NCBI GenBank assembly: GCA_964473615.1
Contig: CAYYPQ010000014.1
Location: 2,229-66,228, forward strand
Length of the DNA: 64,000 nucleotides
Reading direction: 5' to 3'
Source of the DNA: an uncultured Desulfobacteraceae bacterium
Lineage (GTDB): Bacteria; Desulfobacterota; DSM-4660; Desulfatiglandales; Desulfatiglandaceae
The notes below the pieces were generated by a model. The model saw nothing but the letters and a program-made list of their open reading frames with translations. It searched no databases and had not been told where the DNA came from. This document shows positions 1,642 through 42,404 of the stretch, piece by piece (the stretch's first letter is position 1; every line of letters begins with the position of its first letter). The translations under genes and the position numbers were made by a program.

Positions 1642-1905
1642 TGTTTGTTGGGAAACCCCCGCTATGCGGGAGGCAGAGAAATTAGTCTATGCCGTACCAA
1701 AAATCAAGGGCATGAAGCGAATCCCGCCCGGCGGGACTAAAATTAATGCAGAGCTTCGCTCTTCTGTTCAGTAAAATAAAATAGAATTCCTTAACTTTAG
1801 GCACTTTGGGCATTTTAGATCACTTTAGTCACTCTGCAAATACGCGAGTAAACAAGCCCCCTCTGGGGGCAAGCCAAAGCTGGGCCATCTGGACCCGGAT
1901 TCTTT
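1642..1905 (+). repeat. Intergenic structured repeat, copy 2 (full length, about 260 bp)
   Basis: Aligns along its whole length with 39721-39980. The shared blocks are gggaaac..ccgctatgcgggaggc.gagaaatta, cccgcc..ggcggga, agagcttcgctcttc, ttccttaactttag.cacttt.ggcattttagatcactttagtcactct, atacgcgag.aaacaagcccc...ctgggggcaagccaaagc, and ctggacccggatt.ttt. It abuts the stop codon of the 1904-2470 gene. Confidence 0.85.
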
Positions 1906-2470
1906 ACTCCTTGTTAAGAAGCTCTTTGTTAATCTTTATATCTGCATCTCTTCTCAGGGCATCAACCCATTCTTTGAGCACTCTACTCTTTTTTTTGTCA
2001 AGGAGTTGTTTGCGAATCCTTTCATGCAGCTCCTCAATGGGAGGAAAGGCCTCCTTTGACCCTTTCATCATGTTATAACGTTTTTGGATCTCATTTTCGG
2101 AGATGTATGTCTTTTTGCTAATATCTTTGGCCTTCAATTCCATCAAGTTCTTTATCAATGTGGATTCCCAATACCTTTCTATGGCCCTGACAAATCTTTC
2201 TTCCCTGTCCAGTTTTAGCCTTTTTGCCTCCTGTATAAGTAGCTCCTTTCTTATAAGCCGTTCCAGAAAATCCTTTTTGGCATCGTCGGTCAATTTAAAA
2301 TCTTCATCCATTTCAAGTTCTGCAGCCATCTCACGCTGAAAAGTATCAAGGGACAGGTTATAATCATTTATCCTGGCCAGAGTTTTGCCATCTTCCGCCT
2401 TTTCCTGAGTGCACGACAAAAGACATGTGCACAAGGACAACAAGATAAAATAAAAGATATTATGTTTCAT
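1904..2470 (-). CDS. Lipoprotein with a SurA N-terminal-like chaperone domain
   Basis: 188 aa. The lipobox LLSC follows a signal sequence (MKHNIFYFILLSLCTCLLSC). The rest is a helical, charged SurA_N/PpiD-like sequence (INDYNLSLDTFQ...FLERLIRKELLIQEAKRLKLD) with no PPIase domain. It is the last gene of the giant-protein operon, 17 nt after the preceding gene. Confidence 0.6.
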   Translation of the reverse strand: MKHNIFYFILLSLCTCLLSCTQEKAEDGKTLARINDYNLSLDTFQREMAAELEMDEDFKLTDDAKKDFLERLIRKELLIQEAKRLKLDREERFVRAIERYWESTLIKNLMELKAKDISKKTYISENEIQKRYNMMKGSKEAFPPIEELHERIRKQLLDKKKSRVLKEWVDALRRDADIKINKELLNKE

Positions 2471-2487
2471 AACAAAACCTCATGCAG

Positions 2488-3240
2488 TCATTTATTTTTT
2501 TTTGAGTAAAGAAAATGGACTTTACACTTGACGCCGGCAGGAATTTGATACCGCGGGTTTGCCAATTCCAGACGTACCCCGAAATTTCCACTTGCTGCGT
2601 CGATAATCTGGTCCACGATGGTCACTGTGGCGATATGCATGCCACCAACAGGTGATTCCGGACTAACCTGCGCTCGTATTCCCTTTTTTATAGTGCCAAA
2701 CCTTTCAAGGGGAACAATTACTTCCACGTAAAGCGGATTGATACTGACAATGGTCAGGATAGAATCTGTCTCTCCCACGTATTCGCCCGGCGCATGGGAT
2801 CGCTTCAACACTATGCCCTGAATTGGACTGTGAATGGTACGCAACTCAAGGGACTCAATTGCCTCTTGAAGTTGCAACTCATTGATCTGTATTTCCGTTT
2901 CCAGTTCATCTTTATCGTGAATAGAGACCAATTGCTTTTTGTAAAGGTCTTCGTTCCTTACCGCTTTGCGCTTACCAAACTCGACACGCGCACGGGCCAG
3001 GTCTACTGCCGCTTTCTCCACTCCCGCTCTCAGTCGAGCGACTACCTGGTCCTTTTTGACTATATCACCCCTCTCAACCATGATCTCTTCCAAGATGCCA
3101 GGGACTTGACTGCTGAGTTCAACTACCTCGCTCGGCTCCAGTATGCCGTCGAGATCATTATGCTCAGCTGCTTGGACGGCTATAAGTGAGTAAAATAGGG
3201 CCAGCAAAGACAAGATAAAAACCCGTAATACCGATACCAT
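2488..3240 (-). CDS. Short HlyD/RND-type periplasmic adaptor (membrane fusion protein)
   Basis: 250 aa with an N-terminal anchor or signal (VFILSLLALFYSLIAVQA). It has lipoyl/barrel-sandwich motifs (VPGILEEIMVERGDIVKKDQVVARL ... IHSPIQGIVLKR) around a short coiled coil. Confidence 0.8.
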   Translation of the reverse strand: MVSVLRVFILSLLALFYSLIAVQAAEHNDLDGILEPSEVVELSSQVPGILEEIMVERGDIVKKDQVVARLRAGVEKAAVDLARARVEFGKRKAVRNEDLYKKQLVSIHDKDELETEIQINELQLQEAIESLELRTIHSPIQGIVLKRSHAPGEYVGETDSILTIVSINPLYVEVIVPLERFGTIKKGIRAQVSPESPVGGMHIATVTIVDQIIDAASGNFGVRLELANPRYQIPAGVKCKVHFLYSKKNK

Positions 3241-3252
3241 AAAGATTTCCTC

Positions 3253-5364
3253 CTATTCGGAACGTCCTGAAAAAGAGAGCATATCTCCTTTATGTTTATC
3301 TATTTTCACCAGTTCGCGGCGCATTCGGGCATGGATACGTTCCATCTTTTTTTGGGCACGGCGAACAGCTAATTTTCCCACTGGGTTTCCCACAGCCAAG
3401 CCAAGTCGCATCAGCCCTAGTGCAAACCATCCAAGGAGACCGGCCCTCCCGCCTTCCAACAAGGGGTCCTCAAGAGAAAGAATTGCCTGGTGAGAGCCGG
3501 GATCTCCCAGCCGGCCGCAGCGGCCGGCCAATTGACGGTCTATACGGCCCGCCTCGTGGCGCTCTGTCAATATGACATGAAGGCCGCCCTTTTCCACAAC
3601 GCCGGGGCCCAGTTTGATATCCGTGCCCCTTCCCGCCATGTTGGTTGCGATCGTAACAGATCGCTCCTCCCCGGCCCGGCCTATGACCGATGCCTCTTCC
3701 TTATCCTGCTTGGCATTCAGGACCTGGTGAGGGATCTTTATTTCGTGGAGTAGACGGCTCATATGTTCCGAGGCGGCAACTGATCGCGTGCCCACCAGCA
3801 CAGGGCGGCCCTTTTCGTTCAGGCGCTGGATTTCCCTCACCACGGCGCGCCATTTGTCATCTGTCGCTCGAAAAATCTTGTCTGAATAACCGATGCGCCT
3901 CAGGGGACGGTGCGTGGGAATCCGGACCACAGGAAGGCCATAAACCGACCAGACTTCACGCCTGACCTCTCTTGCAGTTCCTGTCATGCCAGAGAGCCTC
4001 ATGTAGCGCCTGAAAAAACGCTGGTAGCTCATCTGGGCCAGGGTCTGCATTTCGCTGGTTACCTTACATCCTTCCTTGACCTCAATCAGCTGGTGTAAGC
4101 CTCGCTCCCACGAGCGATCAGGCATCACCCTCCCGGTGAATTCATCAACAATCTGCACCTTATCATCACTGAGCAGATAATGCACGTCCATATGGAAAAG
4201 TTTCTGAGCGGACAGGGCCTTTCTGGCGATTTCTTCCCGTCTGATTGTACCTTTCCACAAGGGCCCCAATGACTTGGAAAGATCGAATATCTTTTTCTTA
4301 CCCCCATCGGTCAATTCAACGTTGCGAGAAGCCATATCAATTCTGTAATCAATCCTATCCTGAAGGCCTTTTACTAACTCCATGGCCTCTTCTAGAAAAC
4401 GCTGCTCCTGCCCGGCATCCCCTGACTTTTTGGATATAAGGAGCGGCGTGCGTGCCTCGTCAATCAATACACTATCCGCTTCGTCAACGATGGCGAAATG
4501 GAGGCCGCGTAGGAGAAGATTCCGCACACGGGCGTTCGTGCCATAAAGATATTCGCTCTGTATCCGTAAGGGGTGCTCGCGATCCTTGAGCTGGATCCTA
4601 TCTCGGAGATAATCAAAGGCGATTTCCTTATTCGTACAATAGGTGATGTCACATCCATATGCGACGCGCCTGTCTTCTGGAAGGACATCATGGGTAACGT
4701 ACCCGACTGTAAGCCCTAATGCCTTGTAGATTGGCCCCATTGACTCGGCATCGCGAGCAGTTAGGTAGTCATTAACCGTTATCACATGGACAGGCATTCC
4801 CGAAAGCGCAGCAGTTCCAGCAGCCAGGGTGGCGGCCAGTGTCTTTCCTTCCCCGGTCTCCATCTCTGCTATCATCCCTTTTAGTAGGGCCCATCCTCCC
4901 ATAACCTGGGTATCAAAATGACGCTGTCCAACGGTCCTTTCCGCTAGTTCGCGAATGAGAGCGAAGGTCTGTGCGACCAATTGCGTTCGAAGCCCTTCCC
5001 TGAGAAGTTGAATGCGCAGGCCTTCAGCCAGACCCTTAATCGCCTCATTGTTCATGTCGCCCAGGGCAGCACCGAAATGGGCTACGCGAGGAACAATGCT
5101 TCTTACCCTTGCGAGGCCGGAGAGCAATGGACGTACCATCCCCCCTGCTAAAGCCCGCACGGTATCGTCTAGTGCGCTGGAGCGAGGGGGCTTTCGCTCA
5201 GGGTGTAGCTCATGGGTAGCTGGAGGATAAATAGATAATGCGGGACGCATGGGTTTTATTCGTTTTATGGGTTTATTCAGAATTTGATATTGCTCAGCCA
5301 CTCTTCGAAGGTAAGTTACACGTTGAATCTTCTGAGCAAGACTCTCCGAATGGCCCGATACCAC
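3253..5364 (-). CDS. SecA-like ATPase paralogue (DEAD motor plus preprotein-binding domain, C-terminal wing/scaffold/tail missing)
   Basis: Near-canonical SecA motifs are present: MIAEMETGEGKTLAATLAA..VHVITVNDYLTARDAE (Walker A region), IVDEADSVLIDEARTPLLIS (DEAD box), LSGMTGTA, TIATNMAGRGTDIKLG and GGLHVILTERHEAGRIDRQLAGRCGRLGDPG. The protein ends about 85 aa after GDPG, giving 703 aa against roughly 900 for housekeeping SecA. It also has an N-terminal extension of about 60 aa. The GTG start at 5364 overlaps the upstream gene by 49 nt; an ATG at 5250 is an alternative start. Confidence 0.85.
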   Translation of the reverse strand: MVSGHSESLAQKIQRVTYLRRVAEQYQILNKPIKRIKPMRPALSIYPPATHELHPERKPPRSSALDDTVRALAGGMVRPLLSGLARVRSIVPRVAHFGAALGDMNNEAIKGLAEGLRIQLLREGLRTQLVAQTFALIRELAERTVGQRHFDTQVMGGWALLKGMIAEMETGEGKTLAATLAAGTAALSGMPVHVITVNDYLTARDAESMGPIYKALGLTVGYVTHDVLPEDRRVAYGCDITYCTNKEIAFDYLRDRIQLKDREHPLRIQSEYLYGTNARVRNLLLRGLHFAIVDEADSVLIDEARTPLLISKKSGDAGQEQRFLEEAMELVKGLQDRIDYRIDMASRNVELTDGGKKKIFDLSKSLGPLWKGTIRREEIARKALSAQKLFHMDVHYLLSDDKVQIVDEFTGRVMPDRSWERGLHQLIEVKEGCKVTSEMQTLAQMSYQRFFRRYMRLSGMTGTAREVRREVWSVYGLPVVRIPTHRPLRRIGYSDKIFRATDDKWRAVVREIQRLNEKGRPVLVGTRSVAASEHMSRLLHEIKIPHQVLNAKQDKEEASVIGRAGEERSVTIATNMAGRGTDIKLGPGVVEKGGLHVILTERHEAGRIDRQLAGRCGRLGDPGSHQAILSLEDPLLEGGRAGLLGWFALGLMRLGLAVGNPVGKLAVRRAQKKMERIHARMRRELVKIDKHKGDMLSFSGRSE

Positions 5365-7460
5365 CGGCTGGCTAGTGGCTCAGGATCATGTTGGAACCGG
5401 ACGAAAACCCTCTCCCCGATCCTGTGTAGTTTTACACCATCCAGGGCTATCTCGAAATGAAAAACCTTTTCAAAGGCCTTGGGCTCCCTTGATTCGAGAG
5501 GGTCTAGTGCAATAGTCCCTCCACCCTTAGTGCTAAGGGCCAGGCTCGGCAGGTCCTTTGATGCCTCTGGCACCTCCCTCACCACTGAGGCCCTGATGGG
5601 GTCGGCAATGTCTTCAGCAAGTCTCGCCTCGACCTTTCGCGTATTATTACGCACCCTATCCACATCCGATTGGGGGACCACAACGCGAACCTTTACCTGC
5701 GAGAAGTCCACCACATAACCCAGGGGGGTCCCACGCCGCAAAAAACGGTGGGGAAGGTTTTGTGCATCGGGCAGGATGAAAATGCCATCAAGAGGGCTCC
5801 TGATAAGTAATTCCTTCTGGCGTTCACGTGCCTGTTCTAACTCTCCTTTGATTCTCTCAATTTCGTCATTGAGTATATCGGCCTCGGTCAGGTCTGTATT
5901 CTGCTTTTCCCTGTGTCTGGCCTCATATTCTCTCAACTGCGATTCCAATACTGTCACTCTCAGGGACAGCTCACGATTTTCGGAAAGCACCAATGGCTCT
6001 CCCTCATGAACCATGCGACCGGATTGGGCCATGATTTGGGTCACAAAACCGTCAGCACCGGCATGAAGCCTGGCATCCTCAGGGGCCCACACCACACCCT
6101 CGGCAGTAGTAAAGGAGGGGACCGGCGCTCTAAAGACCACCGCTGCCAGCGCGCCCATTACCACCATAGCAGTAAAGATGACGCGGCCCCGTTTTTTTTT
6201 CATGTCCGGGTCCGAAAACAGGGTTCGAATCGCCCTGCCAAGGGGAAATACAAGCATGCTAAAAGCGGCCCAGGCCGCAAGCAACAGACCCAGGACGAAG
6301 AATTTCCCGGCAACAAAAAATGCGATTCTCACACTGATATATATGCGGTAGGCGAAGGAGGCAATGGCGAAAAAGCCAAGCCATCCTCTCTCCCCTGGCT
6401 CTGAGGCAGGAGACTCGGCATCTGACACCCCGAAAAGATAGCGCCTCAGGAGATAGCCGATATAGCGATTGCTGCGCGAGGCAAGATTGGGGATTTCCAG
6501 GTAATCTGATAAGATATAATGGCCATCATAGCGCAGGAGGGGATTTCCGTTAAACAACAGAGTGGAGATGCCTGCGATCAACATGACGTTGAAGCAGACT
6601 GTCCGTATGGCGCCTGGTTCAACGTTCACCCAGACGAGCATCGCCAGAGCGGCCAGGAAAAGTTCTACCATTATCCCGGCGGCATCCACCGTCATGCGTT
6701 TACGCTTGTCAAAAAAAGCGGATGAGGCTGACGCATCCACGTAAGGGATGGGCATCAAGACCAGCAACATGATGCCCATTTCATGCACCTCGCCTCCCCA
6801 GCGCTTTACAGAATAGGCATGACCAAATTCGTGGAAGGCCTTAACAAAAGGATAGACCAATCCCAGCACCATCAGGTTTTCAACCGCCAGAACACGATCT
6901 GCTAAATTGGATGAGAGGTCCTGCCAGTGTAAAACGGCGAGTACACAGGCCGCGATCAGCAAACTGACCCATAATAAAATTCCCATCCATCCCAGAAGGG
7001 GGCGGACCAGAAACAGGGACCTTTCCAGGAAACGATCCGGGTCCAAGAGCGGGAATCGGGCAGCCATGGGAGACAACAGGTTCCTCATCCATCGGCCTTT
7101 CCGCACCCTTGCCTCGCGCACCCTGAGTTCCTCGATATCCGGGGGGATATCCGCCTGCAGAACGCCGGTCTGATGGAGCTGGGAAAGAAGTCCGATCACC
7201 TCATCCTGGGTGGGCATATCGTCACCCAGCCTATCGCAGGCGGTCTCCCATATTTCACCCATCGACCGCCGGCCGTTCATGAGACCTATGATGAGATATG
7301 CCTCTGGGGAAAACCTGTGGAACTGTCCCGTCGAATGATCCTGTAAAACAAACCATTCCTTTTGGCGAAATACCTGGCGGTGGATTTGCGCGTGGCCCCG
7401 CAGCCGCGGCCTCATTCCTTCCACCCTGTACCAGACACGGCTGAATAAAGATTTCTCCAT
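5316..7460 (-). CDS. Fusion protein: PqqD/RRE-like N-terminal domain, M50 (site-2-protease family) polytopic metalloprotease, and HlyD-like periplasmic domain
   Basis: 714 aa. HEFGH lies at residues 210-214 (nt 6819-6833) and the second M50 motif is FNGNPLLRYDGHY, with multiple TM helices. The C-terminal half has a coiled coil (LRVTVLESQLREYEARHREKQNTDLTEADILNDEIERIKGELEQARERQK) plus a barrel-sandwich motif (IRSPLDGIFILP). N-terminal residues about 30-100 (FVLQDHSTGQFHRFSPEAYLIIGLMNGRRSMGEIWETACDRLGDDMPTQDEVIGLLSQLHQTGVL) resemble PqqD-type peptide-binding domains. Confidence 0.8.
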   Translation of the reverse strand: MEKSLFSRVWYRVEGMRPRLRGHAQIHRQVFRQKEWFVLQDHSTGQFHRFSPEAYLIIGLMNGRRSMGEIWETACDRLGDDMPTQDEVIGLLSQLHQTGVLQADIPPDIEELRVREARVRKGRWMRNLLSPMAARFPLLDPDRFLERSLFLVRPLLGWMGILLWVSLLIAACVLAVLHWQDLSSNLADRVLAVENLMVLGLVYPFVKAFHEFGHAYSVKRWGGEVHEMGIMLLVLMPIPYVDASASSAFFDKRKRMTVDAAGIMVELFLAALAMLVWVNVEPGAIRTVCFNVMLIAGISTLLFNGNPLLRYDGHYILSDYLEIPNLASRSNRYIGYLLRRYLFGVSDAESPASEPGERGWLGFFAIASFAYRIYISVRIAFFVAGKFFVLGLLLAAWAAFSMLVFPLGRAIRTLFSDPDMKKKRGRVIFTAMVVMGALAAVVFRAPVPSFTTAEGVVWAPEDARLHAGADGFVTQIMAQSGRMVHEGEPLVLSENRELSLRVTVLESQLREYEARHREKQNTDLTEADILNDEIERIKGELEQARERQKELLIRSPLDGIFILPDAQNLPHRFLRRGTPLGYVVDFSQVKVRVVVPQSDVDRVRNNTRKVEARLAEDIADPIRASVVREVPEASKDLPSLALSTKGGGTIALDPLESREPKAFEKVFHFEIALDGVKLHRIGERVFVRFQHDPEPLASRWYRAIRRVLLRRFNV

Positions 7461-7471
7461 CCAAAATTACC

Positions 7472-9358
7472 TTAAGGCCACCAGGACCATGCCTTTAGTC
7501 TGAGCCATTCGGTCAGATTTCTGGTCCAGATGAAGATGAGTTTGCGGCGGTCTACATAAATTTTGCCGACACCTTCCATGCCAGGGCGAAGACGTTCGGA
7601 CACGGACTTCAGGTGGGCCTCAACACGGAAGTAGTTTCGGCCTTCCCGTGCGGTAGATATGGGAGTGATCTTTTCGACCAAGAAGTCGTAGTGATCATTA
7701 GGAAGGGACGACAAGACCAGACTGCCCTGCTGGCCTGTACGTACGTCCGCAATTCGGCGCTCATCGACCTGTACTATGACGCGATATGCATCTAACGGCG
7801 CTAGCTCAAAAAGTACATCACCTTTCTCCACCAGGCCCCCGAGCATTTGGCTGAGATCACCGCTGGCCACAATACCATTAAAGGGTGCCAGGATACGTGT
7901 CCGTTTTAGCTGGCTTTCCACCAGACTGAGCTGAGCGTTGGTCTGGTCAAGCTGTGCCTTGATTATGTTGACATCAGCCCACTTGTGCTTTGCCAGTACC
8001 TCCTGATGCTGTCGACGAAGCTGTCTTCGCTGGCTCAGCCACTTAAGCCTTTGTAGCCTCAGATCACGATCGTCCAAGACACACAGGAGCATATGTTTTT
8101 TTACTAGGTCCCCGGCACGAACATGGGCCTCTTTTATGTAACCATTAAATGGCGCAACCACAACACGGCGTACCGCCGCTTCAAGAGTGGTGTCGGCAGA
8201 TAGCCAATACTTCCCTGTCGCAACGCTAAAAAAAACAATAATGCCTGCCAGGAGCAAGACGATTAACTTTCTGCCAAGGTATTGCAGGCCAAAGAGCCTT
8301 TCCACCTGTGCCTTGAGGGAATCAAGAATTTTGCCTATCAGAAGGCGATCATTTAGGCGCTTGTTCTCCAATGCGGGGGCCACCAGCCCTGCCACGCTGC
8401 GGCAGAATTCAACATCACCGTCGTCAAAAGGCTGATCCTCCGGGCGCTCTAAGGTCAAGGCGCCGTAATAGGTGTTGTTTCCATACAAAGGCAGCGTCAA
8501 GATAGAGCCGGAGCCATGTTGTTTTGCCAGAAATTCGTGGTCTCGGGTAACGATGATTTCGGCATCTGGCGGGGCAGGATGCCGGATTTCCTGTCGCTGA
8601 AACCTGGCTTCGTCCATTGCTCTTTCAATAGAGCGGATCAGATTCATGCGCTTTCCAAACTGAGCACTGTGTGAAACCGTTTTCACACGGATACGATTTC
8701 TGCGTACAAAACCCAGGCTCACGCGGTCGCAATGGAGATGTGTCGCCATTTCAGTTACAAAGGTTATGCTGGCACCCCTAAAATGATCCTCTGCCAGCAC
8801 GGCTGCCAGCATATCAACTGCAGCTTTGAGACCCCCGAGGGCCGTTTCACTCTCTTCCTTTTTACTCTTGCAGAAGAAAAGTTCCAACCATGATTCACCC
8901 CATTGCAATTTATCCATGGCAGATTTCAACTGGGCTTCCTCATCCGTGGCTACTTCAAGGGCAACTACGCCACATAATTCTTCATTGATCAGGATGGGAT
9001 ACGCTAAACCGTAACGAGGCGGGTAAGAGGTATCCATGCCAGGAGGCATGGCCAATTCCACAAGCAGACCACAACGCTCAGCCAGTACTCGTTCCGAGAT
9101 TTCCGCCAGACGCTCAACATCCACCCCTTCTTGGGGCCATTTGGCAACAGGTACGAAGGAATTTGTTTTCAGGTTACCAATTATGAGCACACCCTGAATC
9201 ACCTTGGAGACACGTGAACACTGCAAAGCAAGCCAGCTATGGAAATACTCGTCCCGGCTGCCTGCTCCAGTGAAGCGGGCCCACAACAAAGCGAGGTTTT
9301 CCTCGGAACTGTCTTTAGCCTTTATGGTCTTATTTATGCTCAAGGATCTCAGCACCAA
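7472..9358 (-). CDS. GAF-domain, TM, HlyD-family membrane fusion protein
   Basis: 628 aa. The cytoplasmic N-terminal half is GAF-like (..CGVVALEV..., ..YGALTLERPEDQPFDDGDVEF..). There is a single TM (LIVLLLAGIIVFFSVATG). The HlyD part has a lipoyl motif (APFNGYIKEAHVRAGDLVKKHMLLCVLDD), a long coiled coil and APFNGIVASGDL. The start is TTG in the ORF track, and the gene ends 11 nt before the next gene. Confidence 0.8.
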   Translation of the reverse strand: MVLRSLSINKTIKAKDSSEENLALLWARFTGAGSRDEYFHSWLALQCSRVSKVIQGVLIIGNLKTNSFVPVAKWPQEGVDVERLAEISERVLAERCGLLVELAMPPGMDTSYPPRYGLAYPILINEELCGVVALEVATDEEAQLKSAMDKLQWGESWLELFFCKSKKEESETALGGLKAAVDMLAAVLAEDHFRGASITFVTEMATHLHCDRVSLGFVRRNRIRVKTVSHSAQFGKRMNLIRSIERAMDEARFQRQEIRHPAPPDAEIIVTRDHEFLAKQHGSGSILTLPLYGNNTYYGALTLERPEDQPFDDGDVEFCRSVAGLVAPALENKRLNDRLLIGKILDSLKAQVERLFGLQYLGRKLIVLLLAGIIVFFSVATGKYWLSADTTLEAAVRRVVVAPFNGYIKEAHVRAGDLVKKHMLLCVLDDRDLRLQRLKWLSQRRQLRRQHQEVLAKHKWADVNIIKAQLDQTNAQLSLVESQLKRTRILAPFNGIVASGDLSQMLGGLVEKGDVLFELAPLDAYRVIVQVDERRIADVRTGQQGSLVLSSLPNDHYDFLVEKITPISTAREGRNYFRVEAHLKSVSERLRPGMEGVGKIYVDRRKLIFIWTRNLTEWLRLKAWSWWP

Positions 9359-9445
9359 ATGGTTGAGTTATGGCAAGTATGCGTACCGATTGCATCGTAG
9401 GCCATAGTTGGCCAGCTAGGTGGAAGGTAGTGTCAGAAAGTAATT

Positions 9446-9805
9446 CTAGGCCTTGGTCCCTGGCGGTTTTTCGCCTGACTCGATACGAAGTTCACCGAAG
9501 CGGGACTCATATTCGCGGAGGATATTGTTGAGTAATAGGGATAGGCGCTTGGCCGCATAGGGGTTCAGAATAACGCGATCGCTCAATTCAACGGTCAGCG
9601 CCTCCTGACTGGTATGCCAGCTTTGGTTGGTACCAAAAAGTAAGGTGACTTCTTCCCTAGTGCTGGATACGTTAACCACGTTGGCATAGGTGCTCTTCAT
9701 CTTGGAGCCATCCCAACGTATTACCGGCCTTGAACTTTTAGCATCCTGTTCAGCCTCATTTTTTGCCTCATTCTTTTCCTTGTTATCTCCGGGTGTCTGC
9801 GCCAT
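9446..9805 (-). CDS. DUF3467-like small protein
   Basis: YANVVNVSSTREEVTLLFG...RVILNPYAAKRLSLLLNNILREYESRFG matches my memory of the DUF3467 pattern. The ATG at 9805 is preceded by a perfect AGGAGG 7 nt upstream (ataggaggacaaactATG). It overlaps the last 23 nt of the giant ORF. The track start at 9823 is less likely. Confidence 0.65.
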   Translation of the reverse strand: MAQTPGDNKEKNEAKNEAEQDAKSSRPVIRWDGSKMKSTYANVVNVSSTREEVTLLFGTNQSWHTSQEALTVELSDRVILNPYAAKRLSLLLNNILREYESRFGELRIESGEKPPGTKA

Positions 9806-12800
9806 AGTTTGTCCTCCTATCATTAAAGTTTAAAAAGGGGAAGCCGATAAATGGCAAATCACCGGTTTGGGATCCGGATCTGCTAGAGTGTCCACCTTCC
9901 TTCAACTGGCCGTTATGCCAGCGTAGGAAGCGCCGTTTATCTTCTTCAAGGTTTAACCTCTGGAATGCCTCTCGATTCAAAATCATCTTGTCATCGCTAC
10001 GCCGCGAAGAGACCGCACTCCATCCCATAAATCCGGCAACCATGGCCCCTAATCCGAGGTCCTCACGAGGCTTGCCCTGGTCTGAAGGATCGTGTCGATG
10101 GGATTCTAATTGCCCGGCGGGTATTTTTAACACCTGATCAGGATAGATGACATCCGGATCAGTTATTTCCGGGTTGGCTTCCCAAATCTTCCGCCATAAA
10201 AGGGGATCACCAAATTTTTCTCTTGAGATGTCCCATAGGGTATCACCTTTCTCGACCTTGTATTCTTTATATTGGATCCCTTTGGTGTAGCTTTCAGGTT
10301 CAGTGTAGCCCTCAGGCTTGGCAGCGGCCTCCGTAAGATATGAACCGGGATGGGAGGGGATCTGGGGTAGGCCAGCCCCGCGTGTGCCAGCCACAAAGGG
10401 CTGTATGCCAGCGCCTTTAGCGGGCAGGATGCCGCCGATAAAGGCAAGCCCCGGCGTCTGCCACCCTGGTATAAAGGGTGATCTGTATAGGGAGAAGAGA
10501 GTATTGGCGATGGTGTCAAGGTTGTACTGTCCGAGTCGGACAACGCTTACGACCTTGCCGCCTTCAATGATAGCGCGGGCATAATCACCGATAATGAAAT
10601 CATCAGTCAGATTGCCCACAAAGACATCATTGCCGAAACCACCAAACATGATGTCGTTATTGGTTCCTCCATCAAGAAAATCGTTACCACCGATGAAGGG
10701 GTCAATAGTTTCGATTACGCTCGGTGTGCCGTTGCTCAGGGTCACCTTGCCGCCGTCGCCCAGAATGATATCGTCACCGGCGCCGCCTGCGACAGTGTCG
10801 TCCTTTGCACCGGCTATGATGATATCATTGCCGGATCCACTAGCTATAACGTCATTGCCGCCCACGTTTGCATCAACGGTAAATACTGTGCCTAGTTCGC
10901 GGATGATTCCATCGGTCTTATCGCCGGGGCCACCGCCCCCGAGGACCGTGACCTCCTGAAGATTCTCATTAAGATAATGGACTCGGCCGCGATCGCCGAA
11001 GATAATGTCGTCTCCGCTGCCTCCAGAAATGGTGTCGTTTCCTTTGCCACCAAAGATGATCAGTGGCAGGCTCGATGAGGAGGCGTCTACAGAGTCATTG
11101 TCGCTCACTGGGTCTAGGGAATCGTCAGGGCCCTGCAGGTTGAGCACAAAGAATCCATCGGTTCCGGCGTCGAGAGAGACGTTGCCACGGTCATCACCAA
11201 GACCTGTATTCAAGGTGGTGATGGTACGGACACCATCTCGCTTGTGGGTACTGGCAACCGTAAAGGTGTCTTCCCCGTAGCCGCTCCACAAGGTGATCCC
11301 TCCGGCAAAGTTACCGTTGGTCAGGTCTGTTTTATAGGTGATATCTGCCGGCGCCAATCCCTGGATCATGGCCTTCGTAATCAAAATGTCGCTATCGCCT
11401 TGGTTGCTATCAGAATCGCTAATCATCAATAGATGCCCGCCCTGGCCAGCGTCTATGTTCAATTGGCCTAAGATATCGTCAAGATTGCCTTCAAGGAAAT
11501 CGGTGGAAGTATCGAGGTCTAAATCGGCACCCGACGATACATAGATCCTTTCATTGCCATCATGTAAATCAATGTTGGTGACGGCGGCAGTTCCCTGAAC
11601 GTTGAAGACATCGTCCCCTGAACCAAGGCTGATATTCAGTTCTTCTACGTTCTTATATTGAACACCCATTGCCATGTCAAGGCCGGTGAGCCTGGTGTTG
11701 TTGAGTACTCCAACGTTGGCATCTGTATCGCCGGTATCATCAATATTTACGATATCATCATTATCACCGCCATCAATGGTCAATAGTCCAGCGATATCAT
11801 CCACCACGCCGCCACTAAGCGGTGAAAGGCTGCCCACATTGATTGTATCACTGCCGCCTGATGTGTGAAGCGAGGTCGTACCCTCATGTGTTGCCCTGAC
11901 GTTGAAGATATCGCTGCCCGAACCAAGGTCAATATTCATCTCTTCCATGTCATGATAAACAAGACCGCCGGGATAATCCTTTCCTTTGATCGTTGTCCCT
12001 GTCGACATATTGAGACCGGTCAGTGTGCTACTGCCCAGCCAACCCTCATCGTCGGTTTCGCTATTCGTGTTGTATGCATTTAGCGTGTCATGGGAAAGTG
12101 TCTCATCCAGTTGTGCAATCAATTCATCACCGCCTAGTGACGGGTCATCTTCTCCTTCCCCTGGCATGTTAACCGGATCACCTACTGGCCGTGCCCCTTC
12201 GCCATCGCCACTGCCACCTTCAATTCTGAGCGGTCCCCTAATTGAGCCAAGGGAGTTTGTTATGGTGAAATCAACATCCTCATCTGTAACGATGATATCT
12301 TTAAGGTTGACATTGTCAGGCACACCCCCGACGTGGATGGTGTCGTTGCCGTAGTTGCCTAGCAAGACAGTGTTGACAATAGGGCTTGTTGAGAGCACAA
12401 AAATCTGGTCATCGCCAATATACGTGTCGACAATAAGGGTTTCTACATATTCATAGTTTGTGGTCAGGCCGGCGCCAAAGACACCTTTGTCAGTAACAGC
12501 AATGGCATCATCAAACTCTGTGCCGATTAATATTAACCTATCCTCTCCTTCGCCGCCGTTTATGTTCACAGGTGCATTTACCACATACTTGATGGTATCT
12601 GCTCCCTTACCACCTGTGATTGTTGTACCTGCCTGTGCGAATGATCTGACATCAAATTTGTCGTCACCGTCTTGCCCGTTTAATTGAAGTTCCTCCCGAT
12701 TGCGGTAGACCGTGATATCGTCGTCACCGTCACCGGCATTGACCGTTGTGGCAGCGCTGACGCCGTTGCTGAGAAAGCCAAGTGTTGTTTCCACTGTCTC

Positions 12801-30800: not shown

Positions 30801-33236
30801 GTCCAGCGTGTTGGGCCCGCCGCTTCCTCCATCGATTACCCCGTCGACATTGCTCCCTTCGACAAAGACAAAGTCGTCCTGGCCGCTTCCGCCGGTCAGG
30901 TCCTCAATGCCGTTGAAGCTTATCTGCGTATTCAGCGTACCGGCATTGTCCCCGGTGATATCCCAGGTATTCGTCCCATTCGAACCTATGAGGGTGTCCA
31001 GTCCATCCCCGCCCTCGATGGTAATTGCTGCGCTGAAACCGGGATCCAGGGTGCCTATGTTCATCGTATCATCGGCGGCGCCCAGGTTGATAGCCAGTAT
31101 TGAGGCGGGATTGACAAAGCTCAATGTGCTGATAAAACTGTCCGTGGCCCTGTCAAAGAAATCGCTCGATGCGCTGCGAATCTGCATTTCGCCGGGTGTA
31201 GCCGCGTCCTTATCTTCCAGCACCAGGTCGTCATTATAGGCGCTCCCGTGTATCACAACGGTATCAGCCACACTGGCGTCAATGATTGGCTCCATGTCCT
31301 CATAGGTGATCGTCTTATTATAGAGGCTGACAGACTCAAGGCCATTTCCGGCAGGGTTGATCACAGTAAACGGACCATCCTCTGCAGGATCTTCGGCGAT
31401 CAGGCTGTCAAATCCCCCTGTGCCGCCACGCACGACCCCGCTCATGCTGCCATTTGCGAAAAAGACAAAGTCATCGTGGTTTCCTGCGCTGCCGCTTAAA
31501 TTTTCAATGTCTAGGAACTCTGTCTGTTCATTGAGCAGACCCTCGTTGGGACCGTTTATTTCCCATACACAGTCGGTCCCGGGGCCTAAGATCGTGTCAA
31601 TACCTTCGCCGCCCGAAAGGATGTCATCACCATCAGTGCCTTTCAATGTGTCGTCGCCCAAACCGCCGGAGAGGATGTTGTTCCCGTCATTGCCGGTCAA
31701 GACGTCGTTACCCGAACCGCCTATGATATTGTGGATATGGCTTACACCAGCTGTTCCCGTTGCTGACCCGGTCGTACCAAGAGAATCAGGCGTTGAAAGA
31801 TCTACCATTATAGGGTTCAGACTCGAAAAGGCAGAGTAGTCAAGAGTATTATTGCCGCCGTTTCCACCGTCAATAGTCCCGGCAAGGTTTGCACCATCCT
31901 CGAAGACATAGGTATTATCGCCCTGACCGCCTATAATGTTTTCAATATTCCTTGAGTTTATGGTATGGTTCCCGCCTGCGATGGAGACCGTGCCATCATC
32001 ATTTACGGTATATTCCCCGTCAGTAACGGTAACATCACCATTTGTGCGGATGACAAAAATCAAATTGTCTTGGATCTGGGAGAAGTCCAAGGCATCGGTA
32101 TCTTCACCTCCATCGATGCTTGTGCCGGAGGTGTCAGGAAATGCCGAAAAGATGAAGGTGTCATCGCCCACTAACCCATTGACTGTAAGATCGTCTCCCG
32201 GATTTAATGTCTGAGGAGATGTGGCTCCACCCGTCACTTCTGCTGTATCCAGGGTAATGGTTTCATCGGCCGCAGTTCCATCAACCGTTATTGCGTCCAA
32301 AAGGAAGGCATAGTCAAATGGGTTGGAGGTCCCAAAGACAGGAAGTGCCTCTATTACGCCGGTGCTGTATTCCAGCACCCAGTCACCGCCCATATTAGGG
32401 CTGCCGGTGGCATCTATTGAAGCGGCCACATCAGCATCTGTCCATTCACTCAGGTCTTCAACAAAATCAACCCCGGTTTTTCCCTGTCCAACGCTGCAGC
32501 CATAAAGCAGAATGTCGCCACCAGGAGCCATGGACCTTTTCCATGTATTTAGCTCCGAGGTACGCTCCGCCAGGTCAGAGCTGTCTATCTGGCTACTGCC
32601 CAGCCGCAGACTACCCGCGGCGCCGTGAGATAGGATGTGAATGGCATCGATTCCTTCATATTTCGCCAACGTCTCGCTGATCTGGTCAATACCGTCACTA
32701 TCGCGGTCAAGGACCACGACCTTGACAGGGGAATTGCCGTCAGTCTCTTGTGGACTAGTTGCTTCATCGTCTGGTACATTTGTTGTGTGGTTGAGTTCTT
32801 CAAGCAGAAACGAGTAATCAGGGACAGAGGGATCGACAAAAACGATTTCCTGTATGGGCTGCCGGGAAATTACCTGGGTAGCCTTTGCCGGGTCGGAAGA
32901 GGGCGTCTCAGGGGCGACCTCAGGGGAATCAGGGTCCGGGATGTGGGGCTGTTGATCCGCCTGCGCCAGCCCTACATCGATTTTCGGGCTATCTCCTGCA
33001 ATTATTTCAGACTTCGTTAAGTCGCCTTCGTATTGCGCCTGAATAGGGACCAGATCAGGCAATAAATCGGCCCCCTCATGAAAATCATGAGGGGGGATCA
33101 CGAGATCCGCAGACAGGAGTATTCGACTTTCCAACGCCTCAAATATAATCTTGCGTCGATTAGCGCCCTCCCTTGACCCAAATCTGCCCGACAAGGGTTT
33201 GAGTCTTCGGGCAATCTTTTTCATTCTATTCAACAT
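9783..33236 (-). CDS. Giant (7,817 aa) repetitive surface/adhesin-like protein: LEPR-XLL-like N-terminal motif, DUF4347, RTX Ca-binding repeats, several repeat families, beta-helix region, C-terminal RTX block, LysM and a TM-like segment
   Basis: A single uninterrupted 23.4-kb ORF. Domain calls are listed as separate features below. It has no classical Sec signal peptide; the N terminus is strongly basic ([29 protein letters not shown]). Confidence 0.9.
   Translation of the reverse strand: [7817 protein letters not shown]
10011..10058 (-). other. Only TM-like hydrophobic segment I noticed in the giant protein, about 76-91 residues from the C terminus
   Basis: [28 protein letters not shown] is followed by a basic 75-aa tail ([35 protein letters not shown]...). 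The positive-inside rule suggests the tail is cytoplasmic and LysM is periplasmic. Confidence 0.45.
10113..10262 (-). other. LysM (peptidoglycan-binding) domain near the C terminus of the giant protein
   Basis: [50 protein letters not shown] is a textbook LysM pattern (V..GDTLW.IS......LW..I...N.....P..I.PGQ.L.IP), verified against the DNA at 10201-10260. Confidence 0.85.
10580..11065 (-). other. C-proximal RTX-like Ca-binding repeat block
   Basis: [52 protein letters not shown] and [36 protein letters not shown], verified against the DNA at 10561-10620 and 10981-11040. Confidence 0.8.
22510..24700 (-). repeat. Gly/Ala/Ser/Thr-rich beta-helix-type coding repeats of about 125 aa (at least 5 units)
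   Basis: The recurrent unit is ..IDNS.V.S.GNV.L.ATS...IDALTI.GA.AVGASG.GSG.A.SGAGAGS.N.I.NT.EA.IK....VT.T....L.A.[13 protein letters not shown]...G.AIS.G.S.A.N.I.N... Confidence 0.75.
25900..27100 (-). repeat. Several (at least five read) tandem coding modules of about 65 aa (LGYxHGFxTGDxVVYxNGGxxSIGGLxDGxTYYVI...I.LA)
   Basis: [201 protein letters not shown]. Confidence 0.8.
31587..31724 (-). other. N-proximal RTX nonapeptide (GGxGxDxxx) Ca-binding repeat block
   Basis: [46 protein letters not shown] was verified against the DNA at 31621-31680. Confidence 0.85.
32361..32849 (-). other. DUF4347-like domain of the giant protein (residues about 130-292)
   Basis: [15 protein letters not shown]...[45 protein letters not shown]...[50 protein letters not shown] is the typical DUF4347 pattern that commonly follows LEPR-XLL motifs. 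Confidence 0.65.
33102..33134 (-). other. LEPR-XLL-like N-terminal motif of the giant protein ([11 protein letters not shown], residues 35-45)
   Basis: [14 protein letters not shown] matches the LE(P/S)RxLLSA signature found at the N termini of very large repetitive proteins (the NCBIfam LEPR-XLL domain, as I recall it). Confidence 0.6.
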
Positions 33237-33329
33237 TACTTGCTCACTCTCTTAAAGGGTTAGTTCGGGTGAGGTCCTAATAATTTTTGCATGCCTCTGG
33301 TATGTTGCTATACGATTGTATAGCTGTGA

Positions 33330-34715
33330 TTATTTCAACCACTGATTGACCATGACAAGATCCTCCCTATTCAAGGTCCCCACTGCCTGTCTTAGACGTA
33401 TGCTGTTAAGGATGTAGTCATATCGCGCCTGTGCGTAGTCCTGCTTTGCCAGGTAGAGGTCTCTCTCCGCATCCAGGACAGCAAGACTGGTATACAGTCC
33501 CGATTTGAAGCCATATTGCTTGGCCTTTAACGCAAGCTCCTGGGACACAACGGACTGCTCCAAGGCCTCCACTCTACTTATCGCACTTTTTACACCAAGA
33601 TACGCCGCACGGGCCTGACGTTTGGCCGCACGGACCTGCCGTTCCATATCTTGCAACGTCGCTTGATAGCGATGACGAGCTTCCCTTGTTCGAGAACTCA
33701 CATACCCGCCTTGGTAAATGGGTAAATTTAGTTGCAAAAGGGCCTCGCTCGTCTCTACTTCACTACCACCCCCGAAAAGTGTGCCATTCGTGTCCCGATT
33801 ATTAAATCGTCCCACCAGGTCAAGGGTAGGGAAATGCCCTGATCTCTGGCGTTTCACTTCCCTCTGGGCCACCTCCACCGCATGACGCTGGACCTCAATT
33901 GCGAGGTTTTGCCTTAACGCCGCCTTGATCCACAGCTCAACATCGGCGGGATCGGGACTCACCAATGGCAGTTTGTCTTTAAGGTTGGAGAGCGTGCCCC
34001 CGAATTCTCCGCAGACCTCCCACAATGCCTGAAGGGAATCGTCCAGGTCGTTTTCCGCCTCAATCCTATGGGCCTTCACTGAGGCAAGGCGTGCCTTTGC
34101 GTCGTGAAGGTCAGTGATCGGGGCCAGGCCCATACCGTATCGGCCCTTGGCAAGCTCAAAATGAAGTTCTACCGCGGCCTGTTCCGCTTGAGCAAAGGCA
34201 AGCTTGTCCTGGGCGGACAGGGCCTCCAGATACAACTGCAAGGTCCTCAGCATCAGGTCCTGTCTGGCCATCTCAAACTCTACGTCGGAACGTTTGATCT
34301 CCTCCTTTGCCTGTCCCACACGCACTATGGATGAATAGTTGAAGACCGGCTGTGTTAACGTCAGTGTATAAGTCTTGGTGGAAAAATTCGTTTTTCCAGT
34401 GGCAAAGACACTATTGTCGCTGCTGACAATATCCTGTCTGGTTTCGATATATTCGCCTTGAGCGGCAAGAGTTGGGAGCAGGCCAGAATATGCCTGGGTA
34501 AGGGACTCGCGAGAGGCCTCATGTTCGTACTTGGCCCTTTGAAACGGTGGGTCATGCCTCTGGGCAAGTCCATATAGCTCCATGAGATTTTCCGCCAGCG
34601 CGAATCGGCTTGGAAATACAAGGCAAAATAACAGGGCTAACCATGCCGAATGTTTAATAAAAGGACTTATGGCCCTGCTTGATCTGGTAGTAGGTAAAAT
34701 ATAGCACTGTTTCAT
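33330..34715 (-). CDS. TolC-family outer-membrane channel protein
   Basis: 461 aa with a signal peptide (WLALLFCLVFPSRFALAENL). It has two OEP-type repeats with characteristic motifs (LMELYGLAQRHDPPFQRAKYEHEAS..., ..YQATLQDMERQVRAAKRQARAAYLGV..). It is the first gene of the operon, 93 nt upstream of the giant ORF. Confidence 0.85.
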   Translation of the reverse strand: MKQCYILPTTRSSRAISPFIKHSAWLALLFCLVFPSRFALAENLMELYGLAQRHDPPFQRAKYEHEASRESLTQAYSGLLPTLAAQGEYIETRQDIVSSDNSVFATGKTNFSTKTYTLTLTQPVFNYSSIVRVGQAKEEIKRSDVEFEMARQDLMLRTLQLYLEALSAQDKLAFAQAEQAAVELHFELAKGRYGMGLAPITDLHDAKARLASVKAHRIEAENDLDDSLQALWEVCGEFGGTLSNLKDKLPLVSPDPADVELWIKAALRQNLAIEVQRHAVEVAQREVKRQRSGHFPTLDLVGRFNNRDTNGTLFGGGSEVETSEALLQLNLPIYQGGYVSSRTREARHRYQATLQDMERQVRAAKRQARAAYLGVKSAISRVEALEQSVVSQELALKAKQYGFKSGLYTSLAVLDAERDLYLAKQDYAQARYDYILNSIRLRQAVGTLNREDLVMVNQWLK

Positions 34716-34813
34716 TGCAAAATCCTTTCTTTGCCAGTTTTTGAATAATTAATGATTTGGATGGTGGTAAGGTGCACAAGAAAACCTTTGCTTTATTTTT
34801 AGAGTGACCCCTA

Positions 34814-34843
34814 ATTATATCATATTTTGTATGTTTTTGTCTA
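34814..34843 (-). promoter_or_regulatory. Candidate sigma70-type promoter for the tolC/giant-protein operon
   Basis: On the minus strand this reads TAGACA, an 18-nt spacer, then TATAAT (the -10 box is the complement of 34814-34819 and the -35 box is the complement of 34838-34843). It lies about 100 nt upstream of the tolC-like ATG in an AT-rich divergent intergenic region. Confidence 0.25.
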
Positions 34844-35362
34844 TGTAAAAATGCCTGTAGGTATAATGTGCATCATCAATAAAAGGGGCAGCGGATTGCG
34901 GGCAAAGCAATTCTTGACTTTGAGATGCATAATATGTTTTTGTAACTACTCAGGTAGATAGGCTGAAGGCATTTAGGCTGTAGTATCGCAGAGTGAACCG
35001 TGCGTGATCACACAAAAGTCGGGCCGAGTATTTCCATTTTCCGAAATCCCGTTTGGTTCGTTCAGGGAATCATTTTACGAGGTGGGTCTGTCAAGACGGT
35101 TTAGGTATTCCGTCGAACATGACATTTCCGGATGCGAATTAAAAATTCTGGAGGCCGAGAAGATTTTATACGCCCTGAGGAGAACAATGCGCAAGAACTA
35201 ATAGCCTTCAGGCTACGGCCTAAGCAACCTGAACAGTTACATGTTTTTTTAACCGATTAGGTTTAAAGTCTGGTTGATGTAGCCCTTTGAGGGGTTCGGG
35301 TTGGTTTTAAGTTTCGGCATCTAAAAATCTGCCATAGGCCATCAAGGCTGGAGGATTTTTGC

Positions 35363-38063: not shown

Positions 38064-39714
<1,651 letters not shown>

Positions 39715-39720
39715 AAATAA

Positions 39721-40280
<560 letters not shown>

Positions 40281-40303
40281 TAAGGCAAAGTTGGTAACAA
40301 GCC

Positions 40304-40735
40304 ATGATAAGTATCAATGCAACAATAGTTGTTCAGGTGATACATTTCCTGATATTGGTCTTTATTTTGAACCGTCTCATGTTCAGGCCTATTTTGAGGC
40401 TGATTGTCGAAAGGACACAGTACTTTGAGGAAACAAGGAACGAAATAGAGAGTATTGAATCGGAGACAGAGAGGGCAAAAAATGAATACCTCTTGAGGGA
40501 AATTAATGCCAGGAGAGATGCTGCAAAGGAGAGGTCTCGAATCAAGGATATCGGCATCACAAAGGCCGAGGAGTTTCTTGACAAGTCCAGACAGGAAGTA
40601 TCATCAATCAGGACCCAAGTGGATAAAAGGGCTGAGGAACAATTAGAAAAGGCCCGTCCGGTAGTCCCCGGTGAGGCCGGGGCCCTGGCAGAAGAGATAC
40701 TGGAGAGGGTGATTGGAAGGAGGAATGTGGGTTGA
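40304..40735 (+). CDS. Fo stator subunit b' (copy 1)
   Basis: 143 aa with a single N-terminal TM (IVVQVIHFLILVFILNRLMFRPI) followed by a long charged helix. It follows atpE. Confidence 0.8.
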   Translation: MISINATIVVQVIHFLILVFILNRLMFRPILRLIVERTQYFEETRNEIESIESETERAKNEYLLREINARRDAAKERSRIKDIGITKAEEFLDKSRQEVSSIRTQVDKRAEEQLEKARPVVPGEAGALAEEILERVIGRRNVG

Positions 40736-41337: not shown

Positions 41338-41387
41338 GAGGCAGACCTTAATCTTCCTATCCCGTGTCATCACACGGGCATTCCATT

Positions 41388-41459
41388 AGGCCCTTTATCT
41401 CACTTCAGTCACGCTGGATATGCGCGAATAGGCATGTCATTCCGGATCCGGATTCTTTA
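41388..41459 (+). repeat. Intergenic structured repeat, copy 4 (3' part only, with an internal deletion)
   Basis: tctcacttcagtcacgctggatatgcgcgaata...ccggatccggattcttta aligns with gatcactttagtcactctgcaaatacgcgagta...ctggacccggattcttta of copy 2. Confidence 0.6.
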
Positions 41460-42307: not shown

Positions 42308-42321
42308 TCCATAAAAAGGCT

Positions 42322-42350
42322 TTGACAATAAAATTATTTTTTTGTAAAAG
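42322..42350 (+). promoter_or_regulatory. Candidate promoter of the b'-b-delta-alpha-gamma-beta-epsilon operon
   Basis: TTGACA (42322-42327), a 17-nt spacer, then TAAAAG (42345-42350). A near-duplicate of the surrounding 20-mer (aaaggccttgataataaaaatt versus aaaggctttgacaataaaatt) overlaps the bactofilin stop codon. Confidence 0.3.
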
Positions 42351-42404
42351 GCGTTACCTTTCTGGCGGATATCCAATGTAATCCAAGAGAAGGATGAAAT
42401 CTTT

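Follow-up and report, generated by a model that had tools for sequence, protein, structure and literature searches.

We analyzed a 64-kilobase (kb) window, the whole stretch of 64,000 nucleotides (nt) from positions 2,229 to 66,228 of contig CAYYPQ010000014.1 of an uncultured Desulfobacteraceae bacterium, which contains an operon centered on a giant protein of 7,817 amino acids (aa) and a truncated paralogue of SecA. An earlier note, made from the sequence alone, had described this operon as a candidate TolC-dependent export system lacking an ATP-binding cassette (ABC) transporter. Profile searches bore out the eight-gene composition that it had proposed, together with the predicted domains: the eight open reading frames (ORFs) are all intact, are all found on the minus strand and have the coordinates assigned to them in that note (coordinates here are those of the window, and the features of the operon are all on the minus strand). 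Starting with the first gene of the operon they code for a TolC-family outer-membrane factor, the giant protein, a DUF3467 protein, an adaptor combining GAF and HlyD domains, a fusion of RRE, M50 peptidase and HlyD domains, the truncated SecA paralogue, a small HlyD adaptor and a SurA_N-like lipoprotein.

The fusion protein (714 aa; 5316-7460) was delineated through profile matches, invariant motifs and topology as an RRE domain followed by an M50 peptidase of the site-2 protease (S2P)-like type and a HlyD region. Aa 1-155 are predicted to be cytoplasmic, at least 5 transmembrane helices are predicted over aa 159-445, and the HlyD region at aa 446-714 is predicted to be periplasmic. Most of the profile matches anticipated in the earlier note were recovered, namely SecA_DEAD and PPXD without SecA_SW, HlyD, GAF, OEP, DUF3467, DUF4347, LysM and RTX, but Peptidase_M50 (PF02163) matched the fusion with 14.3 bits, which is under the Pfam gathering threshold of 27.2. 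The M50 assignment is based instead on the HExxH zinc-binding and catalytic motif (H210, E211, H214; 6819-6833) and the NxxPxxxxD motif (aa 304-312, N304...D312), both invariant in the family alignment, on a match to the NCBIfam model daptide_HExxH (2e-44; 152 bits, under the equivalog cut-off of 300), and on a homologue from Pseudomonas solani (locus L085) that passes the threshold of PF02163 with 31.9 bits. Within NCBIfam this M50-type protease is related to the daptide and YydH/LiaK models. An exhaustive search recovered 4,526 representatives of the fusion family at 50% identity (E <= 1e-30), which are about 715 aa in length and align end to end.

The N-terminal RRE (PqqD-like) domain of the fusion (aa ~10-100; 7161-7433) was recognized using an AlphaFold2 (AF2) model of its first 450 aa and Foldseek. 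The model displays three beta-strands followed by three helices, with predicted local distance difference test (pLDDT) values of 73-88, and a Foldseek search of the PDB with this domain retrieved the leader-bound lasso B1 proteins 5v1v/5v1u (TbiB1) and 6jx3 with a probability of 1.00 and target-normalised TM (template modelling) scores of 0.71-0.76, with the RRE-bearing sactipeptide synthase CteB also among the best matches. At the sequence level Pfam PqqD matches the window fusion with E = 0.008 and precomputed matches to PF05402 exist for the homologue fragments P0242, P0247, P0251 and P0269; in the Pseudomonas variant L085 no RRE was detected by sequence. From the modelled RRE fold at the cytoplasmic N-terminus we infer that the fusion would bind and cleave an N-terminal leader.

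The truncated SecA paralogue (3253-5250; SecA_DEAD 2.7e-101, PPXD 7.8e-26, P-loop_SecA 1.9e-55) comprises the two nucleotide-binding domains (NBDs) in the arrangement NBD1-PPXD-NBD2 and about 30 aa of the scaffold helix. Its alignment spans residues 35-603 of Bacillus subtilis SecA, no match to SecA_SW was obtained in profile searches, and it scores under every SecA and SecA2 equivalog cut-off of NCBIfam. The ORF reaches 5364 with a GTG start, and the 49-nt overlap with the M50 gene reported earlier is a longest-ORF artefact, because the family is about 664 aa long: starting at the ATG at 5250 gives a protein of 665 aa and leaves a gap of about 65 nt to the M50 gene. The gaps of 11-93 nt described between the genes of the operon are correct. 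The paralogue has kept Walker A, DEAD, GMTGT, TERHE and the arginine-finger motif in intact form, and Walker A and DEAD are retained in 120 out of 120 homologues (P0001-P0120); judged by these motifs it is predicted not to be catalytically dead, in agreement with the motor role first suggested for it. Members of this SecA-like family share 55-74% identity with a median length of 664 aa, and stop about 103 residues past ERHE with a conserved GDMLSFSGR(S/P)E tail (3253-3300 in the window), which could be a docking motif. By its predicted domains the paralogue is a natural N68-like SecA, which retains the DEAD and preprotein clamp modules and lacks the wing, the two-helix finger and the C-tail, and in this it resembles the N68 fragment of Escherichia coli SecA.

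Two additional HlyD-type adaptors are encoded in the operon. The GAF-transmembrane-HlyD protein (7472-9358), identified by domain profiles and topology prediction, is predicted to have a cytoplasmic portion that includes the GAF domain (aa 1-363), a transmembrane helix (aa 364-382) and a periplasmic HlyD region. The small adaptor of 250 aa (2488-3240; HlyD_D23 5.5e-17, TIGR01730 6.8e-37) has a predicted cleavable signal peptide (AVQA/AE) and would be a soluble periplasmic protein. The TolC-family outer-membrane factor, which is the first gene of the operon (33330-34715), has a signal peptide and matches both OEP (8.5e-57) and TIGR01844 (1e-99; 334 bits versus a cut-off of 225). The HlyD-family membrane fusion protein (MFP) and the TolC-family outer-membrane factor that typify a type I secretion system (T1SS) are thus both represented here, the former by three HlyD-type proteins.

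The giant protein (9783-33236) is marked by LEPR-8K, DUF4347, LktA_tand_53, RTX and LysM regions. The net charge over its first 30 aa is +10, and FEALESRILLSAD comes after them; no hydrophobic h-region is seen in this N-terminus, the maximum 15-aa hydropathy being 1.15. The LEPR-XLL leader motif at aa 31-51 (IIFEALESRILLSADL; 33084-33146) matches NF012209 with 27.8 bits against a cut-off of 17. This motif, in LLSAD or MFDGA flavours, stands at the head of 60 of the 120 DUF4347 N-terminal fragments, and it also heads the cargos of the related loci L041, L070, L084, L085 and L089. The DUF4347 domain proper (aa 131-310; 32307-32846; PF14252 3.9e-50) is typified by two near-invariant elements across 121 sequences, SHG (His204, 97.5%) and DILLYGC (Cys247, 98%), and Cys247 is one of only 5 cysteines in the entire giant. 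As a motif-level conjecture, this His204/Cys247 pair may be likened to the dyad of clan-CD cysteine peptidases; membership of DUF4347 in the CHAT/caspase assemblage found no Pfam match at E <= 1 and stays at the level of that conjecture.

The remainder of the giant has the hallmarks of RTX adhesins, in the form of long tandem extender repeats (LktA_tand_53, 3.4e-84 and 4.6e-68) and a C-proximal RTX block (HemolysinCabind; aa ~7393-7491, 10764-11060). RTX motifs are near the C-terminus in 41 of 43 related giants, and the window giant also carries them toward its N-terminus (aa 506-1144). Beyond the RTX block is a motif of the form AGxxGW ... RFxRW (aa ~7734-7776; 9909-10037) that is conserved across 49 giant C-termini and stands where a T1SS substrate would carry its uncleaved C-terminal secretion signal, for which it may be a candidate. 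A hydrophobic stretch in this region was rejected as a membrane anchor, having a hydropathy of about 1.0, which falls short of that of a transmembrane helix, and being part of the conserved soluble motif. The LysM domain (aa 7659-7706; 10119-10262; PF01476 5e-11) was likewise rejected as a general periplasmic anchor because it is present in only 3 of the 43 related giants.

A pattern scan of one genome per species in 185,579 species, with the alignment of the 714-aa fusion as its basis, detected relatives of the M50-HlyD fusion in about 430 of them. Carriers are distributed across Desulfobacterota, Gamma-, Alpha- and Betaproteobacteria, Acidobacteriota, Nitrospirota, Latescibacterota and Omnitrophota, and cultured ones include Neptuniibacter, Marinobacterium mangrovicola and Geomonas paludis. 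Gene neighborhoods were then counted in the best 80 loci of the fusion search, unless another denominator is given. This survey, which had been set beforehand as a test of the proposal, revealed an order conserved across many phyla in about 80 loci: giant, (DUF3467), GAF-HlyD, M50-HlyD, truncated SecA, small HlyD. The outcome that would have refuted the proposal, a gene set not kept together in other genomes, was therefore not obtained. The M50 gene is present in 80 of 80 loci, with the SecA-like gene beside it in 79; wherever the contig allows, the GAF-HlyD gene precedes the fusion gene, being kept directly upstream of it across related loci, and the small HlyD gene comes after the SecA-like gene, as is seen in most loci. 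Three SecA-like homologues chosen on long contigs showed the same order, with giants of 10,790-17,800 aa. In 47 loci the stretch directly upstream of the module codes for a homologous giant C-terminus. Of the 48 loci with room for one, 34 have an ORF of 1000 aa or more that ends no farther than 2.5 kb upstream; in most of the others the giant is frameshifted or a modification module has been inserted there. A gene for an OEP protein also adjoins the cargo or the module in L041, L061, L067, L084, L085 and L089. The proposed link to LEPR-XLL/DUF4347 giants was thus recovered across loci and in alternative arrangements. Given that such proteins adjoin M50-HlyD and OEP genes in other arrangements and lineages, the adjoining LEPR-XLL/DUF4347/RTX giant is likely to be the cargo of the module.

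The alternative arrangements (L041, L070, L084, L085 and L089) include divergent operons and instances in which TolC is inside the module. In the P. solani locus L085 (AP023081, 503466-525052), which has neither SecA nor DUF3467, genes for the small HlyD, a 439-aa HlyD and a 698-aa M50-HlyD protein come first, followed by an Asp/Arg hydroxylase, sulfotransferases and an acetyltransferase, and at the end a LEPR(MMFDGA)/DUF4347 protein, a PATR-repeat protein and an OEP protein; hence, the LEPR leader and M50-HlyD co-occur even where SecA and DUF3467 are missing. L089 is a GAF-less variant, and the LEPR/DUF4347 N-terminal contexts of L087 and L088 were uninformative, as the giant runs off the locus. 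We also noted that L004 (7618-9756 and flanks) is the only one of the 80 loci in which M50-HlyD is directly followed by the small HlyD, with no SecA-like gene.

The SurA-like and DUF3467 proteins, listed earlier among the genes of the operon, are not universal parts of the system in this comparison. The SurA_N-like lipoprotein (1904-2470; SurA_N_3 6e-07; lipobox LLSC) was rejected as a component, its gene having a counterpart in only 1 of 80 other loci (L004); though co-directional, it is probably outside the system. The DUF3467 protein (9446-9823, with a likely start at 9805; PF11950 1.7e-21) was counted in 48 of 66 loci and is genuinely missing from Neptuniibacter and Geomonas, making it a frequent accessory and not a universal part. 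In its AF2 model, three strands are accompanied by a single long helix; a Foldseek search of the PDB with this model gave PC4/PUR as the best, non-significant match (E >= 0.14), with SecB not among the matches, and a profile search of the PDB gave no match. The notion that DUF3467 is a SecB-like chaperone was rejected on account of this Foldseek result and an hhalign probability of 0.3, obtained with an approximate E. coli SecB sequence.

As a separate observation, an optional module is found beside the secretion genes in about 15 of the 80 loci (L001 at 12767-18772, L002, L003, L018, L019 and L027, and also L033, L038, L040, L046, L047 and L059) and not in this window. It combines a radical SAM protein, an O-methyltransferase, a 204-aa P-loop/PRK-like protein, a 290-aa protein without assignment and a large DUF3467 protein (380-700 aa), a composition suggesting that the cargo or a DUF3467 protein is modified post-translationally. 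A radical-SAM gene elsewhere in the window (54610-55539) showed no phmmer homology to it and was set aside as a member of this module.

The original claim that ABC motifs are missing from the window was upheld. A six-frame scan for Walker-A and ABC-signature motifs and a Pfam scan of the flanking ORFs found no ABC transporter in the 64 kb, and the only other Walker-A ATPases detected there are the F1 alpha and beta subunits. Among related loci, an ABC-like ORF was encountered within 10 kb in 4 of 83, where it is distant from the module and its position varies. That the module has no ABC partner, the usual energiser of a T1SS, is a conserved feature.

The core of this module has been described before. 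Kamneva, Poudel & Ward (PLoS One 2015; PMC4452313) found by genome comparison a conserved module with a secondary SecA_DEAD protein, whose locus includes Peptidase_M50-like/HlyD, GAF/HlyD and HlyD/Biotin_lipoyl proteins, sometimes OEP, and no ABC transporter. They proposed that SecA_DEAD had been co-opted as the ATPase in place of the ABC protein and that the pore might be the M50 protein; they named no substrate and regarded the biological role as wholly unknown. Their example, META1p2402-2399 of Methylobacterium extorquens AM1, has the order GAF, M50, SecA_DEAD, HlyD, and the window agrees with it in all four proteins and in how they are ordered. The window also shares the second SecA_DEAD protein without wing or scaffold (the alignment stops at ~603), the absence of an ABC gene from the locus, and the OEP gene that is sometimes adjacent; the patchy multi-phylum distribution of the module suggests horizontal transfer. 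The window locus is a complete new example of a module known in silico since 2015. The statement in the earlier note that no described system has this composition was overstated, because the same four-gene core is in that paper. A literature search on LEPR-XLL, DUF4347, DUF3467 or SecA with HlyD/M50 returned no description of the system beyond PMC4452313, in which RTX, adhesin, cargo and PqqD have zero occurrences and the DUF terms are unrelated. Not part of the 2015 account are the RRE, DUF3467, the LEPR-XLL/DUF4347/RTX giant, the SecA-less variants and the optional radical-SAM module, and the contribution made here consists of assigning a cargo, putting forward the RRE-leader hypothesis and cataloguing the natural variants.

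Comparisons with better-known machinery help place the module. It resembles the T1SS of RTX adhesins (LapA/LapBCE, MpIBP, SiiE) in its TolC-family exit duct, its HlyD-type adaptors and a giant, Cys-poor, repetitive cargo with RTX near the C-terminus, and differs from them in having no ABC protein, three adaptors rather than one, a SecA paralogue as the ATPase and an N-terminal leader with a putative cognate RRE-protease. The accessory Sec systems (Gram-positive SecA2/SecY2 and mycobacterial SecA2) likewise pair a dedicated SecA paralogue with large surface proteins. However, the window paralogue lacks the whole C-domain and, in diderm bacteria, is accompanied by MFPs, TolC and an S2P-like protease instead of SecY2 and Asp proteins; no SecY-like or Asp genes were found among the annotated window ORFs, and the SecA2 models of NCBIfam were all under their cut-offs. 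In pathways for RiPPs (peptides synthesized ribosomally and modified post-translationally), M50 proteases remove leaders, and EpeP is believed not only to cleave its peptide but also to export it (PMC10885120). With RiPP machinery (RRE/PqqD; EpeP, TglG and the daptide protease) the module shares the RRE fold, the M50-type HExxH intramembrane protease and HlyD partners resembling those of NHLP/bacteriocin exporters, but its presumed substrate is of 7,800-17,800 aa and not a peptide, the RRE, protease and adaptor are in one polypeptide, and a SecA motor is attached. Finally, a 2023 preprint (bioRxiv 10.1101/2023.11.21.568195) reports SecA_DEAD and PPXD inside giant proteins of Omnitrophota and Actinobacteria. 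There too the SecA motor and preprotein-binding domains lack scaffold and wing and are proposed to act in the export of the giants themselves, but they are within the giant polypeptide, and HlyD, TolC and M50 have 0 occurrences each in the preprint.

Taking these observations together, we consider it probable, at roughly 0.6, that the module is an envelope-spanning machine dedicated to exporting and processing the giant encoded beside it. Its parts, their conservation and their folds being as described above, the functional steps that we infer would be as follows. The basic LEPR-XLL N-terminus of the giant would be a leader bound by the cytoplasmic RRE, and the S2P-like intramembrane protease attached to the RRE would cleave it. 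The truncated SecA, docked on the cytoplasmic parts of M50-HlyD and GAF-HlyD, would supply ATP-driven polypeptide movement in place of an ABC protein, pushing the Cys-poor chain in its unfolded state. A periplasmic duct to TolC would be built by the three HlyD-type adaptors, one fused to M50, one fused to GAF and one soluble in the periplasm, with the GAF domain gating or regulating the system and DUF3467, where present, serving as a cargo-handling accessory. Known leader-dependent exporters, whether RRE systems or peptidase-containing transporters, use the N-terminal leader as the signal for export, and SecA normally moves chains from N to C starting with an N-terminal hairpin; by analogy with this leader logic and polarity, N-to-C threading would be favoured for the giant. 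We tentatively raise the further possibility that this is an unnumbered secretion system of diderms, in which the RRE-protease-MFP removes the LEPR leader and SecA drives N-first, SecYEG-independent and ABC-less export through a three-adaptor/TolC duct. N-first threading, which had been presented as part of the original proposal, does not stand as stated there; the giants end like classical RTX adhesins.

Several points weigh against such a machine. No recognizable protein-conducting inner-membrane channel is encoded in the locus, and we know of no S2P-type protease that is a translocon. The truncated SecA lacks the two-helix finger used by canonical SecA, and the AF2 model of the transmembrane part of the fusion, built from a shallow alignment, is of low confidence and unreliable. 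Variants exist without SecA (L085), without DUF3467 (L053 and L054) and without GAF (L089), and each of the three is therefore dispensable in the wider family. The absence of ABC genes holds for the 64-kb window, and such a gene may be encoded elsewhere in the genome. The C-termini of the giants, with their RTX and conserved terminal motif, look like those of T1SS substrates. Three of the four M. extorquens AM1 genes were barely expressed in exponential phase (PMC4452313), and a literature search found no experimental follow-up or experiment on any member of the module.

The resemblance to T1SS substrates leads to the strongest rival, which we regard as doubtful, namely that export is C-first and T1SS-like. 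Here, the conserved motif after the RTX would be the secretion signal, and the RRE-bound N-terminal leader would stay in the cytoplasm and tether the giant until M50 cleavage, perhaps controlled by GAF, frees the fibre, in a manner analogous to LapD/LapG-LapA. The layout of the giants matches that of the RTX adhesins LapA and MpIBP: in addition to the C-proximal RTX with AGxxGW..RFxRW after it, lectin or LysM tip domains precede the RTX in some giants, and DUF4347 is a compact N-terminal domain that could be a plug. However, the leader is the export signal in the known RRE- and peptidase-containing exporters, SecA usually moves chains in the opposite direction, the window giant has RTX toward its N-terminus too, and the locus encodes neither an ABC nor a C39-like receptor that could read a C-terminal signal.

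The missing channel would be explained by a two-step route, in which the paralogue, acting like mycobacterial or listerial SecA2, hands the giant to the housekeeping SecYEG channel, the S2P-like protease removes an atypical LEPR signal, and the adaptors and TolC finish the export. We judge this to be unlikely, and somewhat more so than C-first export. SecA2 systems can use SecYEG and the S2P-family protease RseP cleaves remnant signal peptides, while the small HlyD is predicted to be soluble and periplasmic and a SurA_N-like periplasmic lipoprotein adjoins it in the window. Against these, SecA is coupled to SecY through the scaffold helix, the two-helix finger and the wing, which the paralogue is without; by the hydropathy values given above a hydrophobic core is missing from the leader, and the SurA-like gene is not conserved.

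It is quite improbable that the giant is not translocated by the module at all, with the latter handling another product such as a DUF3467-type or radical-SAM-modified peptide bound by the RRE, or only processing or quality-controlling a giant exported by an ABC-type T1SS encoded elsewhere. RRE, M50 and HlyD do constitute a RiPP-like toolkit, the radical-SAM/methyltransferase/large-DUF3467 module is present in some of the loci, and the ABC scan covers the window rather than the genome. Nevertheless, the module adjoins giants in dozens of loci and several gene orders, also where DUF3467 or the radical-SAM module is missing, LEPR and M50-HlyD remain together in the Pseudomonas locus, and in the window TolC is in the same operon as the giant. 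A decaying remnant, for instance a truncated secA pseudogene, can be practically dismissed: the paralogue is indeed shorter than SecA, but its uniform truncation point, shared GDMLSFSGR tail and conserved ATPase motifs argue that it is not a decayed gene, and the eight ORFs are intact, including a reading frame of 23.4 kb.

Both boundaries proposed for the operon are present. On the left is a 93-nt repeat copy (1637-1729), of which a second copy (252-344) is 86% identical; the two form a direct repeat with a CCCGCnATGCGGG hairpin, flank two small genes for a 195-aa protein without assignment and a 193-aa HAMP protein, and have no Rfam match. On the right is an AT-rich divergent intergenic region (33-38% GC over 34700-34900) with a candidate sigma-70-type promoter (34814-34843, minus strand; 11/12 match with a TG extension, on consensus match only); an Rfam search found no riboswitch or other RNA element there. 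Farther into the window, on the plus strand, is an atp operon (38064-48467), in which a 334-aa ORF (38710-39714) consists of four fused ATP-synthase c-subunit hairpins. The ion-binding Glu is retained in hairpins 1 and 4 and is Gln in 2 and 3, which suggests a c-ring with half the usual number of ion sites. This operon has at least 3 ATP-synt_B ORFs (40304, 40732 and 42405) and a bactofilin gene (41825-42307) inside it. At 54610-58615 (plus strand), the radical-SAM gene mentioned above is followed by a gene for a 1,030-aa BcrAD/BadFG-type activase with DUF2229.

If the module indeed exports the giant, it would represent a fourth way to energise a TolC/MFP conduit, after ABC, resistance-nodulation-division (RND) and major facilitator superfamily (MFS) proteins, and the first case of a SecA motor employed other than in SecYEG-type translocation; the surface delivery of the widespread LEPR-XLL/DUF4347 megaproteins would be explained as well. 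A candidate cargo, a candidate pair of LEPR leader and RRE, and a set of catalytic residues are now available for testing, cultured carriers exist in Neptuniibacter, Marinobacterium, Geomonas and M. extorquens AM1, and the natural SecA-less, GAF-less and DUF3467-less variants allow comparison. Were it a distinct system of the kind tentatively raised above, the leader logic typical of RiPPs would have been carried over to proteins of 8,000-18,000 residues.

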